Of a stretch of 64,000 nt of DNA, positions 47,546-57,223 are shown piece by piece. The first letter of the stretch is position 1. Each line of letters begins with the position of its first letter. Both the position numbers and the translations under genes were made by a program. Location: the NCBI RefSeq assembly GCF_011745625.1, contig NW_027191460.1, positions 248,001 to 312,000 on the forward strand. Reading direction: 5' to 3'. This DNA is from Cladosporium halotolerans. Its lineage: Eukaryota. The notes under the pieces were generated by a model. The model did not search any database. It saw only the letters and a list, made by a program, of their open reading frames with translations, and was not told the origin of the DNA.

Positions 47546-48060
47546 ACGAGTTCGCCGCGGGATTAGGGGTTTACATTCGTAGCATGCAACATATCCGGGA
47601 CAGCGTTTTCGTAGTCTTCTATTCAACCGAACACTACCGATTCTAGTGAGATACATGTCGACCTGTTTTTGAGTCGGTGAGTGACACTTTGAGCTTTTAA
47701 CCTCGCAAGTCATGGGACCCGTGTGAACGGAGCGCAATGAAGGACAGCAGTATCGAGTTTTCAGTGACATTCGAATTTCCTATGGAGCTAGTAGACTGTG
47801 AAAGGCAAAAACGCCATTTTCACGGATCAAAGAGCAAGACTTGTTTTGAACGCTTGAGAGCAAGAAAGCACGCAAAAGCCAAACGATCTCTGTGGTATCG
47901 GCCCAGCACCTGAAAATTGTGATCTAACGCCGTGATTCCGCGGAATGGGTTATGGAACGCGGCAAAGGAACAGAACACATCGCAGAAATCCTCGCGCCCG
48001 ACCGTTGCCTGAGCCTCTGAACCATTGCATTCAACCGAAGAAAACGCACCTACACGTACC

Positions 48061-49916
48061 TCAGACATTTGCCGCCTGTGGGAAGTTCATGTTGTAAACC
48101 GCCTCCACGACGAACTGAGCGGTGATGCGCTGGCCGCCGAAGAAACGGCCGTTCAAGCCTTTGATGGCGTTCTCGCCACTCTTGAGCTGGTCAAATTTGA
48201 CATAGACCTCTCCGTCGGTGGAGCCAGGAGCGATGGCAATGTGAACAACCTTGCCGTACTTGTCGTTGCATTCATAGGCAACGTCTTCTTCGAGCTCTTT
48301 ATCCCAGCCGGCTGCTTGAGTACTGAAAAAGGGTCAGCGTAGACAAATGAGGGTGATACAGGACCAAACTTACTCTTGCTCGGTGTAAAGATGTTTAAGC
48401 AGCACACAGCGGCTGGGCTGAGTCTGGTCAACCGGCGCTCTCTGCTGTACGGCCTTAGGTGCCACTTTCGGCTCGGGCTCTTCTGTTCTGGCAAGCTTGC
48501 GCATAAGCGCATCGCGTGAGTAGTTGGAGAAGTTGACACCCGCAACGTCGTTATCGTCGAGGGCACTAGCTCCGCCAGTCTTCTCAGCATCCTTACCGCC
48601 AGCGCGATCGAAGTTCGCGGTACCGCCCGCATGAGCGCCACGGCCGCCCATCCCAGAGAAAGATGAGCCCTGATGCTGCTGCTGCTGTGCCTGAGCTTGT
48701 CCCTGAGGACCGAATTTCTGCAACAAGGATTGAGTAGTCTCAGGCGTGAACTTATCATTGCCGAGTCCGACACGGATCGGGCGTCCGGCAAGCTCGAAAC
48801 CGTTCATCTTCTCAAGTGCTTCTTTAGCTTCATCCGGTTGGTTAAACCTATGTCGGGTTAGCGCGCATCTCTGAAACGGAAGACAAAATCAACGTACTGG
48901 ACAAAGCCGTAGCCTTTGCTGCGCCCCTGCTCTTCCTTCTGCAGCTGGCAAAATTCAAGTGCACCAAATGGCTCGAAGACGGTACGAAGATCGTCCTCGG
49001 TGATTGAGAAGTGGATGTTGCCTACGTAGAGGCGATGGAATGGAATGCCGTTCGAGAGGGTAGCGACGCCCTCGGTGTTACGGGCCTGGCGGTTCTTTTC
49101 TGCTTCGGTGAGCTGGGCAATGATTGGGATGCCAAGAAGTTTCTGTCCCGTAAGCTGCAGTGCCTTTTCGACGGATTCTTCGTTCTTGAACTCAACGTAG
49201 CCAACGCCCTTGGAACGGTTGCTGACACGGTCCTTGACAATCTGAGCCTCTTTGACGGGTCCGACCTGCGCGAAGAATTCCTCAAGCTGGTACGTACGCA
49301 GGCGGGCGGCGAGCTGCTGCACGAACACTGTACGCCTGTCGCGCTCATCGTCGGTTGGCTCTGGAGGAGTACGACGACGCTCGCGGGGTTCACGACGCCG
49401 GTCGTCGCGACGGTCGGAGCGGTCGTCGCGTCTGTCGCGCCTATCACGTCTGTCATCACGCCTGTCGCTCATGCGATCACGGTTGCCTGGACGATAGTAG
49501 CGGTCTTCGTCGTCATTTCCACGGCGGTAATAGTCACCACCGTCACGGGAGCGCTCGTCGCGAGAGCGGTAGGGCCTATCGCGGCGATCGCGAGGGCTGC
49601 GGCTCCTGCGTCTGCTCCGGACACTTCCATTAGCACTGCCTCGGTCACTCTTGTGGTCGTCTTCGCTCAAGCCGTGAGATCCGCCCACGCGGGACTCCTC
49701 ACGCTTGCTTTCGCCCGGTGAGTACCTATCTGCCCCACGCTTTCCGCCGCGCGCGCCACGGTCGCCCGCATCTTTGGAATCGCTGAGGGACACGAAGTCC
49801 GCTTTGTGATCGAGTTTGGTGACTTCGGCCTGTTCGAGGGTTTTCTGCTGGTTCTCGCTCTTTTGCTTCCTCTCCGCGGAGTCGAGGAGCTCTTCGATGC
49901 TCTGGAGGTCCGCCAT
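48061..49916 (-). CDS. Splicing factor RBM39/Rsd1/PAD-1 (RS-like N-terminus, two RRMs, UHM)
   Basis: Exons 49916-48898, 48847-48374 and 48322-48061 (584 aa). [76 protein letters not shown]. Confidence 0.95.
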
Positions 49917-50704
49917 GGTGTTGGTGAGAGTGGTTCAAAGTAGTGTGTGTGAGGGCTCACTTGAGCGTGTCCACGGGGAGTGGAGCGTGTACAGGAGGGC
50001 TAGTCGCGTTCGATTCAAGGTAACGGTCGCAGTCGGGGATGAAATGAGCTGGGAGATCGTGAGATCGCTGCCAGCCGCGCAGATGAACAGGGTGATGTCG
50101 AACGTTAATGTCGCCTGGTGTTAAGCGCAAAGCCTCTGTCTGATGCTTCGTGCCGAGTTGCTGTGCGCGAGCCGCGGTGCAGAGTAGCGATGGGTTAGAA
50201 GTGAAGATGCGCTCGGTCTGGCCGTCAGTCGCGAGCGAACGTCAGTTTTCGCGCTAGCGGGGCGACCGGCGCACGTGCCACTCTTGGCAGAAACGCCTGT
50301 CACTTACAGGCATCCGCGGGAACACTTCCCGAGGCCGCATAGATACGCAAGTCACCTCTATCATCAGATCCCTGGGCTACATGACTCCGGCTGGGGTATG
50401 AATGTTGGCTATGATCCAAGCTGGCAATTGCACGAATACTCGTGTTTAATGGAAGGCCATCGAGCTTTCACATATACAATATACTCAAATTGACCTCCCT
50501 CAAGAAACAACGCTCGACCAAACCAATGCAATCATCGTAAGTTGTACAAAATTCGACCAACTTTCCGTCCATATTGGTTGAGGAATGCCGACACAGTCAT
50601 AGCGTGGTCCACATCAAATCGTTATTGCATCCTAGCAAACAAAACGAGCTCAGCCGTAAAGGTATATCCGGAAGTTTCGCAAGTGCACATTCGGCAATGC
50701 CACC

Positions 50705-52469
50705 TCACCTAGCGGTCTTGAAGATTGGTCTTCTGTCTTCGACCCACTTTTCGTCTTCATGAGCTTCTCGAAGCTTTAAGTCCCGCGCACACTCAGCCTC
50801 GAGCCATCGCTGAAGGTTTGCTAGGATCTTGCGAGCCCTGGCTTCGGGATATCCCAACAAAATGCGACGCTCAGCCTCTCGCCAGTGGAAGTGCTTGTTG
50901 CGTTTGTTCGGCCTGGCCAAGCCAAGATGTGTGCGATAGTGGTCGCACGCGTTGTCGGAGCGACCTATATCCTTTTTGCAGTCTGGCAGCACGCATGGAT
51001 ATAAGCGGACGTCACTGTGTTTGCTCAAATGACGCTTCAGGTGCTCGCTGCGTGCGAATGCACTTGTGCAGCGGACACCCTTCTTCATGTCGATGTGGTC
51101 GCATACGTAGGCCTTCCTCTTCACCGTATGATCGGTGCGGTAGAACTGGCCGTTTTCATCGAACCCGACTGCATCTCCAGCTAGCTGCAAGTCGATCCCG
51201 GTGTTGTTGTGATTCTTCCGTTGTTGAATGCACTGGGTCTTCCGCTGGCGCTTCGACATCTTCCGATTGCCTGATCTGCCTCTGGCCCTAAGGCTTGGTT
51301 TCAATGTTGGACTCATCTCAACCTTTGGTTCGACCAGGACAAACCCGTCGAGGTCAGTGCGGTAATCAAGTTCCGGGCTTGGGGTTCGGATCTCTTCGAA
51401 GGAATGCAGACTGGACGCGAGACTCGTGGACATCTCTTGCGGGCTTGAGCTTGGGCTCTGCAGCATTGTATAGCTTGAGTCCGGATACCCATCATGAGGA
51501 TTCACCAAAGATGGCTCAACAATGCCAGAACACTGGTTGTACGCCGTCGGCAAAGCGTCATGTTGGTAGGCCGAAAGACTTGCCACGCTCTCGGTCATGG
51601 AACATGGCTTGCTGTCATATGTGTGCGGGATCACGCTTTGACACGAAACCATTCCATGACTGATGGGAAACAAGGTAGTCTGGAGACCAGTCGACTGCGG
51701 CATGAAGTCTGCGTTAGACGTTTGGTGATCATGCCATATTCCTTCCTGTTGCTCCATGCCAACATGGTTGCTATAGTCAGGCAGGCCGTTGGGAAGCGTT
51801 GCCTGATCAGGCCATGTGGCATCTTGAATGAGATCACATCCGTTGTGGTTCTCGAGGCTCAGATGTACCATGTCTTGTGAAAGGTTGTGATTGCCCAACG
51901 TCACCGGAAAATCAAGGCTAAGCTGATCCTCCGGAAAATGCTGTATAGCATGCTGTCCGTGGCTTGGGGTGCTACGGACAGGTGTCGTTGGTAATGAGAA
52001 AGCCGTTGACGTGGAAGCAGCGGAATAGGGCATGTCGGGGTAGGACGAGTACGCTAGGGAAGGGCGACGACTTTCGTGAGCAGATTGTGGCGGCGTAAGC
52101 CACCCAGCACATTGCACTGCGCTCGTACTTTTGGCCACGGGTGCTCTTGTATCAATTAATGGCACTGCGACGCCACGAGATTGCCGATTAGGTGTTGATA
52201 CTGCCAACATATCGGAATAAGAAACTGCAAGAATGTAAGCTTTTGGCGAGGTTTATGGAATTATGACATCCAGACGCACAAGACAAAGGGCCTCCTAATG
52301 ATATAAGTCAGAAGCAGGTTATGCTGATAAAGGGTGCAGGTTTCGCAAAAGGTTCAGCACTTCATAATCCGAGGATCGGGAAACCGTGTGGCTTTTCAAC
52401 CTGAGGCTATGATGGGCTGCAAAGCATTCAAAGACCAAGGGGAAGTTGCCACTAACCGTTGGTATACAT
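50705..52469 (-). CDS. Two-finger C2H2 transcription factor with BrlA/Msn2-like recognition helices
   Basis: Main exon 52224-50705 carries CTSAFARSEHLKRHLSKH and CVLPDCKKDIGRSDNACDHYRTH. Two micro-exons (52469-52457, 52294-52280) splice in frame and add MYTNGGPLSFSYSD; total 515 aa. Confidence 0.85.
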
Positions 52470-52474
52470 CTTGA

Positions 52475-52510
52475 CTATCGACGGATCTGATACCGCGATA
52501 TAAAATGCAT
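52475..52510 (-). promoter_or_regulatory. Upstream ORF (MHFISRYQIRR*) ending 5 nt before the predicted C2H2 start
   Basis: ATG 52510 to TAG 52475 lies in the predicted leader exon 52556-52457. Confidence 0.55.
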
Positions 52511-53046
52511 AGACCCCAGGTCAGGGCCAGGGTAGAGGGTGAAGCGCTTCAGACGACTATTGGTATTGGCAATTCAGTCGAGGCCCACATCAGTATGCCA
52601 GGAACGACACGTACCCAAGTTTTACAACACCAAAAACCAGTCAAGACACAAAGCCCAGGAAGTGGCGATCGATTAATCTCCTAACGGCTGTCTGGATTGT
52701 TCTGGCCAGCAAGGGAGCAACAGAGGGGTAGTGTAGGCAGCTACAGCGAACTGCAAAGTGAACAAGATGGTGGTGTGCGATGCAAAGGGACCTTGCAGCG
52801 AAATAAGTATTTGTGCAGCCGCAGCAGGTCAGGCACTCACCTTGCTGTTCGCTGAGTCTGGCGCCAGCGTCCCGCTGTTCTGGATCAAGAAAAGATGGAG
52901 GACTGCCTAATGGGTATCTGCCCTCATAGCGATGTCAGCCCCGAGGAACGCCTCCCATAAGGAATGCAACCATCACTCACCCGCGCCGAACAGCACGCGA
53001 CAACACCCTCACCACCTGAACCAGAACAAAGAGGCAAAACTCTCCG

Positions 53047-53056
53047 ATTTATAAAT
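53047..53056. promoter_or_regulatory. Palindromic TATA box ATTTATAAAT, candidate distal promoter of the C2H2 gene
   Basis: About 70 nt upstream of the first predicted leader donor (52980). Confidence 0.45.
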
Positions 53057-56000
53057 ACGATGAGCCGCGGCACACATTATGGACGTTCTCAGAGACGGGC
53101 ACACCAGGATGCAATTGTTTTGATCTGCTCTTTGAAGCGGTATAGGAATGCTACCTCACCCATACTACGCACCTGCCTGTGCGCGCGCACAGACTGCTGT
53201 GTATCATTGGGGGACTGGGTCACGAATTCATTGGACGTTGCCTGTGAAGACCGCATCTCTGCCAGTCACCAGTCGCTAGATCCTTCCGCAAGCTCCGACG
53301 GCAGATACCAGTGGCTAAAAGGTGCATTTGAGAACTCAACAGTGGTAGAATCACACAAGGTGACCCTGGGAAGATGTTCACTGCTCCATGCCAGACACAC
53401 CAGCTCGATCTGGTCCTCGCTCTGGACATCGCTGGCCTCTTGGCTATAGAGAGACTCTCAAGCGCGTCAAAGCTGCAGAATTCCGCCGATTCCGACGCCG
53501 CCACCCGTCCATCTGCTGCATGTCACACTCTTGCACGCTTCGGTTGCGTGCATACGCGATACCGTCCTGGTCAACTCTCTTGACCTCCATTTTACACGCG
53601 ACATTTTTGACAAGCCAAAATCTACCACGACCAAATACCGACGGAAATGGATTATGGTCGATCGAGACCTCGCTCGTTTGTCTAGACCAGGTATTTGGGG
53701 TGGTCTATGCTGCACCTGCGACGGTGACACAACAGCTTAGCAGACGGCAGGGAACACCGCGGTTCTTCGCGAATTCCTTGCAAACCTCACAAGTCGACCC
53801 GACCCTCTGCGCGCTTTGACGGTATGATCGACAGGTCGCACTGGTGGTGCCTCATGTTGATTACAGCGGGTATCAAAGTCTCTCTCAACATTGCCGGCAT
53901 TTTTGCCTCCGACATTTCCCACCAGCCGGCGCTGGTAGCACTGACGTCCACACCCTCAAGGACGAGGCCGGCGCAGCAGCTGACTCGGTGCCACCTAGCC
54001 ACCGTGAACTGCCCCGATCAGCCTCTGGCCGCAAACTGGCACAACGACTACACCATAACGATTACGAAACGCTGGGTCTCGACCAGCACAGCATCTGCGC
54101 GTTCCTGATCTCCATGCCGTGCCGGACCCAGCGTGCGTCGCCACCCACGCCACCGCGCCGCTGTCCAGACGTTTCATCAAGCCCACATCCTTGTCTCCAA
54201 CACCATCCTCATGCCAGTCGCCAGCCGCTGCCGCGTCGGACTCAGCGGATATGCAGGGACACACCCGCACACGTATACCCGCTTCGCAGGGCTTCGTGCC
54301 GCGTCCTCAACTTGTCCGCTGTCTGGATGCAGTTACGAGCTCAGCCTGTCTTGCAGAAGACCAATGCCGTGTCTCTCTTGTTTTCACGGAAGATCCCAGA
54401 CAGCTTGTCACCAAGCTGGGGTTGACCATCTAGAGTCTTGCAGCCTCGCCGCGCCACCAATCGCCCTTGCACATGCGGCTGTCATTGGTCACGCGAGTCT
54501 ACAATGCGATCCATGCGCTAGACGTCTCTTTGCAACAAGTGTTGCACAAACGAGTCCGGCCTCTTCATCCGTGCCCCTGCGCGAGAGCCCGCGCAAGACG
54601 CACTCCATCGCGGCCCGTTCAGGAACATAGCCAATTCTCCTGCTGCCCGCATTTCGATGCTGCATGCTTGGATCCAGATTGCGGCCTTAGGAAGGTCTAC
54701 GAGGGCTTTTGTGGCACATCCCATCCAGTGGATGCCCATGTTTCCGCCAGGGCGAAGCCTACGTGATGTCAGTCGACCATGAGCTTAGTCCTGAGATCCG
54801 GGTTCTTGTCTTTCTGGTGGCTTTTGAATTGATTCTGCGCTGCCCGTAATTGGCATTCCGGTCCCCACCTTGCTCTGGGTGCGATTTCGATGAACCTGTC
54901 ATTCCGCTCGATCGCTCTGCTCAGACACTTCTCTTCTCGCATCGGAGAGTTATGGAGTCTTAGCCACTCTGTGGATCTGACACATCTTGCACCACAATCG
55001 GTCACCCTGGCGACCTTTTCGTCACTGATACAGCAGCAGCGCCCTCTTTGAGGCTTGCATCTCCGACGGTCATGATATTGCTCAAGCTTACGCTCAAAGA
55101 GTGTATCATCTGCAAGAGCGTTCTAGACACAACACCACAGGAGCTACTACCGCTGCCGTGCAGCTACATGGAGCTGTCGCTGAATCTTGTGGTGCTTGGA
55201 TCGACCAAGCAAAATGTCGTGTTGTTAAGGTCGCAGGAAGCACAGTCCCATGTGTCACACTCGCGGTCGCTGCTAATCTTTCAGTCCAGTCATTGTCAAC
55301 ATCGCGCTCCTCCCAACTCCGACGGGACTCTGTCGACCAATTTCCCACTGACATGTGAACAGCTCCCTCGGATTTTGCATGTGTGGTCCGGTCCACAAGA
55401 TGATACGGTTGTGGAATCTCGTGAGATGGCAGGGAGCGTTGTCCAGCTAGATCACAACGTATACTGCAGCTTGTTTGAGTGGTTGGTCTACGTGGTGAAT
55501 GTTTCACTTCTGCAGGACAGGACGTGAGCGCCCGCGTAGTTAGATGGTTTCCTTCGCCCGTAAACAAGACTCAGTTGGATTCTAGAATTTTCGCTTTCCG
55601 ACGACATCGCTGAAAACGGCCGGAATTGCGGCTTCACAGACCAATGGCGCAAGCGTACCTGCAGGCTACTGCAAGTAATCTCAGCGATTTGCACCCTGCT
55701 GTCAGGTACAATGTACCTCCGCCACCAAGGCATGGACTATATGCCCTATAGGACAGACTGTATAGCGACGGTGGGTCAAAAGGCATGGCAAAGGTACGCA
55801 TTCGACCCGTCGAGCACCAAACCGGCGAAAATCAAAGCATAAGGCGGCCAACGGCACAATAGTCTTTTCTCCGCGCGCCCCAAGGTCTTCTTTTCTGGGG
55901 AAAGTTGGAGATTCTGCTGGGCCGTCCAATGCACGCCACGCCGTTGGAGTCTGTCCGAGAGTATGCCCGCCCCACATGCCGGCTTGTCACGTTTTGGTCT

Positions 56001-56421: not shown

Positions 56422-57223
56422 ATGCCTTTCCGACAACGAGCCAAGGCCTTCTTCCGCCGCCGACGGTCGGGCGACGGCCTCTCCAAAACCGACTCTTCAG
56501 ACTCGCACGAGCGCTGGCCCAGCAATGTCTACAAGCCCGGCGAGCCCATGCCGCGGCCTAAATACCGCCAGCCGCCCAAGAAGGAACACAAGGAGCACTT
56601 GGAGTCCTTCAGCTTCGCCGACGCCTGGCGCCGCAAGAGCTTCCAGAGCCAGTACTCTCCCATGGGCACCCGAGCACCGAGCAGACTGCCCAGCGCGGCG
56701 CCTAGCAGGCGCAGCAGCTGGTACAGCCGCAAGAAGAGCTTTACCTACTCGCGTAGCGGAAGCGTGACGAGCCTTGATACACACAACAGCTCGGCTGAAC
56801 CGAAGCGGATGGCTTCGCAGAAGAGCGCCAAGGTGCTGAGCAGAGGACCATCACAAAAGGACACAAGACGAGAGTACGCTGCACGAGCGACGCGGCTGAG
56901 CACAGAGGTTGAGCAGGAAGGCGACGACGACGTCTTTAATGGTAAGCAGCCACCGACACGCATTTGTAATCAGCATAGAGCAACCACTGACGAAGCATAT
57001 AGTCGGCATGTCCCGCGTACAATCGCACGAACGCAATCCCCTCTCCCGCCAGCGATCGCTGAACCAGAATCCGCACGCAGCAACTCATCTGGGCGTGCCG
57101 CCCAACCAGCGGCTCAGCGGCCAGGCGGATTCCGTCCAGGCGCACGACCACCACCCGTTCACCGAGCAGGAGCTGGCGCTCGCGCTCAAGAAGTCTCACC
57201 TGACTGTTCCGGCGCAAGCATGA
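56422..57223 (+). CDS. Fungal hypothetical basic/S-rich protein
   Basis: Exons 56422-56941 and 57003-57223 (246 aa). Motif VYKPGEPMPRPKYR...EHKEHLESFSF...SQYSPMGTR, which I recognise from Pezizomycotina hypotheticals. Intron GTAAGC...ACTGAC...TAG. Confidence 0.8.

Follow-up and report, generated by a model that had tools for sequence, protein, structure and literature searches.

A conserved, predicted multi-intron leader and a hidden coding start at an unnamed C2H2 gene of the Dothideomycetes

In a stretch of 64,000 nucleotides from a 27.9 Mb fungal genome (the window), a minus-strand open reading frame (ORF) from 52210 to 50705 encodes a 501-aa protein with two C2H2 fingers close to its C-terminus. 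The main coding exon occupies 50705..52224 (minus), with its second Met at 52210 and the fingers at ~51103-50927. Downstream on the minus strand lies an RS-rich RRM gene with two introns (48054-49916), which we take to resemble the splicing factor RBM39/Rsd1/PAD-1 and which is a syntenic neighbour among orthologues. Upstream, the intergenic region extends ~4.2 kb to a divergent ORF at 56422. The fingers of the window protein score under the Pfam cut-off, which the relative P0035 exceeds, and the full protein matched no Pfam family at E<=0.01.

A single-sequence search with the window protein found 46 relatives, the best named being those of Cladosporium fusiforme (48%) and Zasmidium cellare (32-33%). 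Profile searches add Hortaea, Saxophila, Teratosphaeriaceae, Zopfia and other Pleosporales, as well as Cenococcum, Mytilinidion, Botryosphaeria, Tothia and Bogoriella; all named relatives belong to the Dothideomycetes. All relatives are annotated as hypothetical or carry automatic labels. The automatic name brlA is attached to one UniRef entry and two Atlas clusters among them, these clusters ranking third with the window protein and first of the named clusters with P0255. No verified BrlA sequence was among the matches of the sequence and profile searches. The family has a signature of its own, with LTPPxS..RRxS in its N-terminal part and RN following finger 2. Msn2/SteA-type factors, which have similar finger helices, are the best other matches in the same genome; L002 and L004, which we name Ste12-like and Msn2-like from their translations, are loci separate from the C2H2 gene. 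In a finger tree, 24 family rows stand apart from the Msn2/SteA-type genes (support 94/87, not starred), and the family appears, with moderate confidence, to be distinct from the Ste12-like and Msn2-like genes. The protein at L038:1303-1518, whose two fingers are followed by a basic tail, may be a remoter member. A literature search, which most subscription papers lay outside, found nothing on the gene or its leader; the gene is a class-wide Dothideomycete C2H2 factor without a name or prior study.

A DNA search gave 80 loci, among which L005-L029 are family members, and conservation was assessed in these. Twenty-one orthologue loci with upstream sequence were scored and 18 were aligned to the window; L009, L022, L025 and L026 have no usable leader and were left out, and L005 and L018 are incomplete. 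Ten loci are termed close (L006-L008 and L010-L016, protein identity about 50%), and the distant loci have protein identities of 28-38%. Since several loci are near-duplicates (L008/L016, L021/L023, L014/L015, L020/L024, and L012/L013), locus counts overstate independence. An RNA run from a near-identical strain, X2, was also compared.

The first-pass annotation had described a hidden leader on the minus strand, with a TATA-like stretch followed by five GT..AG units, and all of these elements are present at the ends given. Introns 1 (52907..52980; minus), 2 (52751..52840; minus), and 3 (52557..52614; minus) are predicted to lie in the 5′ UTR, where they enclose the non-coding leader exon 2 (52841..52906; minus) and leader exon 3 (52615..52750; minus), which carries a BRE-consensus site. 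Intron 2 had been left with three possible acceptors (52751, 52741, and 52681), each of which exists in the window. Orthologues settle the choice, as 52751 is kept in the close loci and 52741 is lost in L007; 52681, which is not conserved among orthologues, was dropped. The 846-nt leader holds five non-overlapping donor/branch/acceptor units, against at most three in 1000 dinucleotide shuffles and at most three in 150 window tiles, as counted with a motif list chosen post hoc, once the signals were known. The counting script took nearer acceptors for introns 1 (52918) and 4 (52324). Two public Hortaea models (P0239 and P0250) read through the leader as coding sequence, which is probably an artefact since the leader is conserved.

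Among orthologues, the donors of introns 1-3 take the forms GTGAGT, GTAAGT, and GTAGGT, with GT changed to GC in separate lineages, and the branch sites read CTGAC, CTAAT, or CTGAT. The window's weak intron-3 branch site is CTGAC in X2. Individual lineages have lost signals: L008 lacks the intron-1 acceptor, L021 the intron-2 donor, and L017 the signals of intron 3. Such losses would fit an arrangement in which all sequence upstream of ~52560 is conserved promoter, splicing never occurs at introns 1-3, and introns 4 and 5 alone are real. The sequence upstream of intron 1 is likewise conserved (0.68 identical), with blocks out to ~55980, and no sense junction of the C2H2 gene was found in the four RNA runs examined, out of 24 listed. 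However, donors that vary solely among splice-compatible forms, with the change to GC in more than one lineage, branch sites that vary within the consensus, and five units against at most three in controls make the promoter-only arrangement improbable. The runs were examined as contigs, their library type is not on record, and contigs show presence only, giving no strand, level, condition or start sites and dropping rare forms; thus, absent sense junctions do not refute splicing. Since no sense junction occurs in the four runs, splicing of the five introns is something that we infer, and that of introns 1-3 is likely from the pattern of variation in their signals. The multi-intron leader proposed at first pass is supported, its splice signals varying among orthologues within the consensus alone. 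A stwintron at intron 5 was also considered and rejected upon inspection of the flanks, as removal of an inner intron builds no new GT or AG.

The spliced leader holds exactly two ATGs, as first described: one at 52510, out of frame, and one at 52469, in frame. The latter, with its 13 coding nucleotides (52457..52469; minus), is conserved: 15 of the 16 orthologue loci tested have an ATG followed, 13 nt on, by a GT donor, the exception being L029. It is followed by intron 4 (52295..52456; minus), a phase-1 intron of the coding region, a 15-nt coding micro-exon (52280..52294; minus), and intron 5 (52225..52279; minus). The proposed N-terminal extension is borne out by the frame, translation from 52469 adding 14 residues to give 515 aa instead of 501 aa. 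Joining donor 4 directly to acceptor 5 also keeps the frame in the window and in 17/17 loci scored. Models with the spliced extension exist at NCBI for Saxophila (P0104), Hortaea (P0130 and its cluster members), and a Teratosphaeriaceae isolate (P0134), and M-x-H starts occur in models of Mytilinidion (P0255) and Botryosphaeria (P0275), though NCBI models may be ab initio predictions. Among the changes listed for X2, two fall in the 13-nt piece, and both are synonymous. Translation from 52469 with introns 4 and 5 as coding-region introns is strongly supported by this comparative evidence. As had been suggested, this spliced start is hidden from ORF callers in the close clade, and the comparison corrects the start codon. 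In several distant relatives (L020, L021, L024, L027, P0130, and P0134), a further in-frame ATG lies ~11 codons upstream, which makes their extension longer.

The micro-exon is frame-neutral, the reading frame being kept whether it is in or out, and its conservation is confined to part of the family. All 10 of 10 close loci have an AG at precisely 15 nt ahead of donor 5, with a CTGAC branch site preceding this acceptor; no distant locus has an AG there. Nine distant loci have donor 5, and their nearest AG lies 11, 12, 22, 28 or 31 nt before it, or there is none within 45 nt. The donor, branch site, and acceptor of intron 5 are conserved around a neutral interior (32%). Comparison strongly supports the micro-exon as a clade-specific cassette, its acceptor being confined to the close clade. 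No protein with a micro-exon-included start was found among the proteins fetched from databases. Because donor 5 is kept in loci without the micro-exon acceptor, a transcript starting inside intron 4 would account for it most simply, and a proximal promoter within that intron is given just short of an even chance.

The out-of-frame ATG opens an 11-codon upstream ORF (uORF; 52475..52510, minus), which stops 5 nt before the 52469 start. The first-pass annotation took it for part of a conserved or convergent switch, as a translational brake of the brlA type, and the comparison speaks against this. No close locus has an exon-4 ATG (10/10 without). Seven distant loci were scored: five have an exon-4 ATG that is in frame, 33 nt upstream, in L028 the ATG is out of frame at 20 nt upstream, and the only ATG of L019 falls within intron 3. 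The uORF does exist and adjoins the start codon, and none of the changes listed for X2 falls at its ATG. However, it sits in exon 4, unlike the brlA uORF, which adjoins the distal start (10.1101/627414), and a brake of this kind is very improbable. The uORF appears from these alignments as a lineage-specific feature that is recent and local. The TATA-like stretch (53047..53056; minus) is 0.58 identical in close loci and carries a substitution at 53052 in X2; it was dropped as a conserved feature, being absent in orthologues and changed in X2. Since the uORF is absent in close loci and the TATA stretch is not conserved, the uORF switch is unsupported. The leader is richer than first described, yet its conserved switch is not the 11-codon uORF. 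A CCCTGAC in exon 4 (52520-52526; minus), found in 12/16 sequences, could be an alternative branch site, the use of which would remove the uORF ATG by splicing, or, read on the plus strand, a CAGGG site, which we take to resemble the site predicted for the protein's fingers by the recognition code.

The strongest constraint in the leader lies within its introns. When the window is compared with L007, L008, L010, and L013, the interiors of introns 1, 2, and 3 are identical at 0.78, 0.85, and 0.72, against 0.32 for intron 5, 0.35 and 0.39 for the two RRM-gene introns, 0.49-0.55 for fourfold sites, and 0.50-0.71 for the flanking non-coding exons. Purifying selection on the leader introns, stronger than that on synonymous sites, is strongly supported by these identities. 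Short blocks of the leader remain even in distant loci. Intron 1 carries a block TGCATTCC..GAGGCGTT (52949..52967; minus) with a CATTCY at 52966, which is invariant in 10/10 rows; the block is absent in L017. The intron-3 block CCTGGCAT occurs in 16/16 sequences, and the intron-4 block TGAAAAGCCACA (52387..52398; minus), as a loose pattern, in 17/18. A BRE consensus in exon 3, on the plus strand at 52722-52728, is present in 15 of the 16 sequences long enough, the window included. A further CATTCY, the AbaA response element consensus, lies in an upstream block (53145..53150; minus) and is aligned in close orthologues, not in L020/L021. CCAAT (53234, minus) and AACAAT (53119, minus) motifs are conserved upstream of the leader and presumably represent sites of the Hap-complex and HMG-box types. 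More non-coding blocks are conserved upstream (53679-54267, 54595-54653, 55644-55716, and 55926-55981), and an unstructured 3′ UTR block (50653..50680, minus; ACGAC..TTTCGGATATACC..ACGGC), which follows the stop codon, is conserved even in distant orthologues. The ARE (CATTCY) and BRE consensus sequences were taken from PMC3741515. The genome holds one TEA-domain match. From these 6-7-nt consensus matches, AbaA and C2H2 inputs on the leader can be proposed tentatively. Across the genome, three of the blocks occur 5, 10, and 6 times, against 3, 3, and 3 for reversed-pattern controls; no regulon was called since these are too few.

The blocks show little sign of acting as folded RNA. Rfam gave no match at E<=5 over 52100-53700, local folds of introns 1, 3, and 4 had mean z-scores of +0.6, +0.4, and +0.5, with no structure signal, and no covariation was found in the leader introns. 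An intron-1 consensus hairpin had 0/10 compensatory pairs, a long-range pairing between donor 2 and exon 3 was no better in cognate than in swapped combinations (p=0.38, 10 sequences), and the 3′ UTR block had no consensus structure. A known structured RNA, such as a riboswitch or snoRNA, was rejected, as there was neither an Rfam match nor a conserved covarying fold. A peptide encoded by the intron-1 and intron-2 blocks was likewise rejected because frames and lengths vary. The sole candidate structure in the leader introns is a small inverted repeat in intron 2 (52781..52797; minus), between the putative branch site and the acceptor, which folds to a 7-bp hairpin in the window and 6/7 close loci; a BRE consensus lies within it on the plus strand at 52784.

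These introns could nevertheless act at the RNA level. Regulated intron retention would make RNA-binding proteins the readers of the intron blocks, with the splicing state gating translation: if intron 1 is kept, an ATG in its gap between branch site and acceptor (52925..52927; minus) would be exposed at 52927, and if intron 4 is kept, 52469 would open a five-codon uORF. The most constrained sequence lies inside introns and adjoins branch sites, and the intron-2 hairpin lies over an AAG near the putative branch site. Translation into the GTTAGT donor would meet a stop at once in the window and 7/8 close loci, although not in L006 and the distant loci. Because the intron-1 ATG is kept in 9/10 orthologue loci (GTG in L029) despite variable peptides, its ORF having 5-94 codons, a uORF dependent on retention stays a live rival. 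Yet this ATG may merely belong to a longer motif, some blocks survive the loss of a neighbouring splice site (L021), and retention as the switch is considered unlikely.

The RNA runs do contain spliced transcripts on the opposite strand. Joints with GT..AG on the plus strand occur in three of the four runs, from two studies; X1 has no intron-like joints, and X16 and X18 come from one study, which may be the window's own source. The antisense introns are 50537..50602 (plus; X16 and X18, with acceptor 50596 in X2), 50662..50824 (plus; X16, X18, and X2), which lies over the C2H2 stop codon, and 52235..52339 (plus; X18), which lies over the micro-exon and whose donor is the complement of the branch site of sense intron 5. 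The donors are canonical on the plus strand, and at 50799 in X18 the joined form has a depth of 42 and the unspliced form 0. Since such joints are found in three runs, a spliced antisense RNA crosses the gene. It begins close to the RRM gene promoter, and its spliced model has five ATGs ahead of a 178-codon ORF. Unspliced contigs cover 52499-54459 in X16 and 52347-53285 in X2; 52499-54501 is covered unspliced in X16, X18, and X2 at depth 12-15, which could be antisense RNA or DNA. The sense gene appears to be low or off in the sampled conditions.

An antisense RNA that diverges from the RRM promoter could serve as an off-switch, repressing the sense promoter until development. The joints from two studies, the depths in X18, and the synteny of the RRM gene are consistent with this. 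However, the antisense splice sites are mostly unconserved (acceptor 2 and donor 1 are each found in 0/9 loci), and donor 2, found in 9/9, lies at 50662 within the 3′ UTR block that is conserved anyway. Antisense RNA over silent genes is common, and the evidence comes from contigs without strand, level or condition, two of the runs sharing a study. The RNA may be regulatory or incidental, and an off-switch is judged to have a low probability.

The reading preferred here, at slightly better than an even chance, is that this leader is the actual 5′ end of a C2H2 gene under tight regulation, with distal and proximal transcripts and intron-borne DNA sites. The distal transcript would shed three 5′ UTR introns, begin translation at 52469, and join the main exon with or without the five-codon cassette to yield an N-terminally extended protein. 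The proximal transcript would probably begin inside intron 4 and use donor 5, giving the short protein from 52210. The conserved blocks of introns 1-4 and exon 3 would act as protein-binding motifs and not as folded RNA, most likely as DNA sites for developmental factors of the AbaA and C2H2 (BRE/STRE) types. The conservation of the leader introns points to tight control of the gene, and a role in sporulation is suggested tentatively. The long conserved upstream region, with leader introns more constrained than synonymous sites, makes the gene a concrete candidate for a Dothideomycete regulator where brlA is reported absent, and as the conserved blocks are mapped, the regulatory question is directly testable. 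At a minimum, the comparison puts right a start codon overlooked by ORF callers in the close clade.

Several known systems share features with this locus. In fungal TPP-riboswitch introns of the NMT1 type, retention of a leader intron exposes uORF ATGs, as retention of intron 1 would here; unlike those introns, the window leader has no Rfam match at the threshold used and no folding signal. Yeast IME4/RME2 and Neurospora frq/qrf are antisense-gated regulators, and here too a putative regulator gene is traversed by spliced antisense RNA, but the splice sites of that RNA are unconserved and repression is hypothetical. In Zymoseptoria, two C2H2 genes, ZtBrlA1 and ZtBrlA2, were picked as brlA look-alikes (PMC6102487). 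ZtBrlA2 is Ste12, unlike the window gene, and ZtBrlA1 is probably another gene because its linker, translated by hand from a primer, is unlike that of the C2H2 family.

The closest parallel is brlA, whose product is necessary and sufficient for conidiophore development. BrlA is reported in Eurotiomycetes only (10.1101/627414; PMC6231087), one survey of its range having been cut at e-100, so that distant orthologues would be missed; the named relatives of the window gene, in contrast, are all Dothideomycetes. brlA is reported as absent from C. fulvum and D. septosporum, and Dothideomycetes such as C. fulvum are said probably to use another regulator (PMC3510045); BrlA-like regulatory complexity outside Eurotiales is posed as an open question in 10.1101/627414. 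BrlA, SteA, and MsnA have been proposed to share ancestry (10.1101/2021.03.09.434684). There is a small probability that Dothideomycetes have in this family their missing equivalent of brlA, an antisense-held master sporulation switch with alpha/beta logic; it would be fast-evolving, deeply orthologous or convergent, and, with equally little probability, would receive AbaA feedback and autoregulation through the leader-intron motifs.

The two genes differ in that the window gene has five predicted introns (brlA has one) and a coding micro-exon, and its spliced leader has no conserved uORF, the ATG at 52510 lying in exon 4, far from the start. The proposed brlA-beta-like logic therefore loses its uORF, which is not conserved, and keeps its spliced N-terminal extension on comparison. 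As in A. nidulans BrlA, described with two C2H2 fingers close to the C-terminus (PMC3741515), the window protein has its two fingers near the C-terminus. The distal spliced transcript of brlA provides a 23-aa N-terminal extension, and brlA-alpha starts inside the brlA-beta intron (10.1101/627414); the predicted extension is 14 aa here, and a proximal transcript from within an intron is proposed for the window gene, for which the orphan donor 5 lends the alpha/beta analogy indirect support. Conserved matches to the ARE and BRE consensus lie in the putative 5′ region of the window gene, as in that of brlA. The window gene thus appears to work partly like brlA, to which it is likened by its features and not by BrlA sequence.
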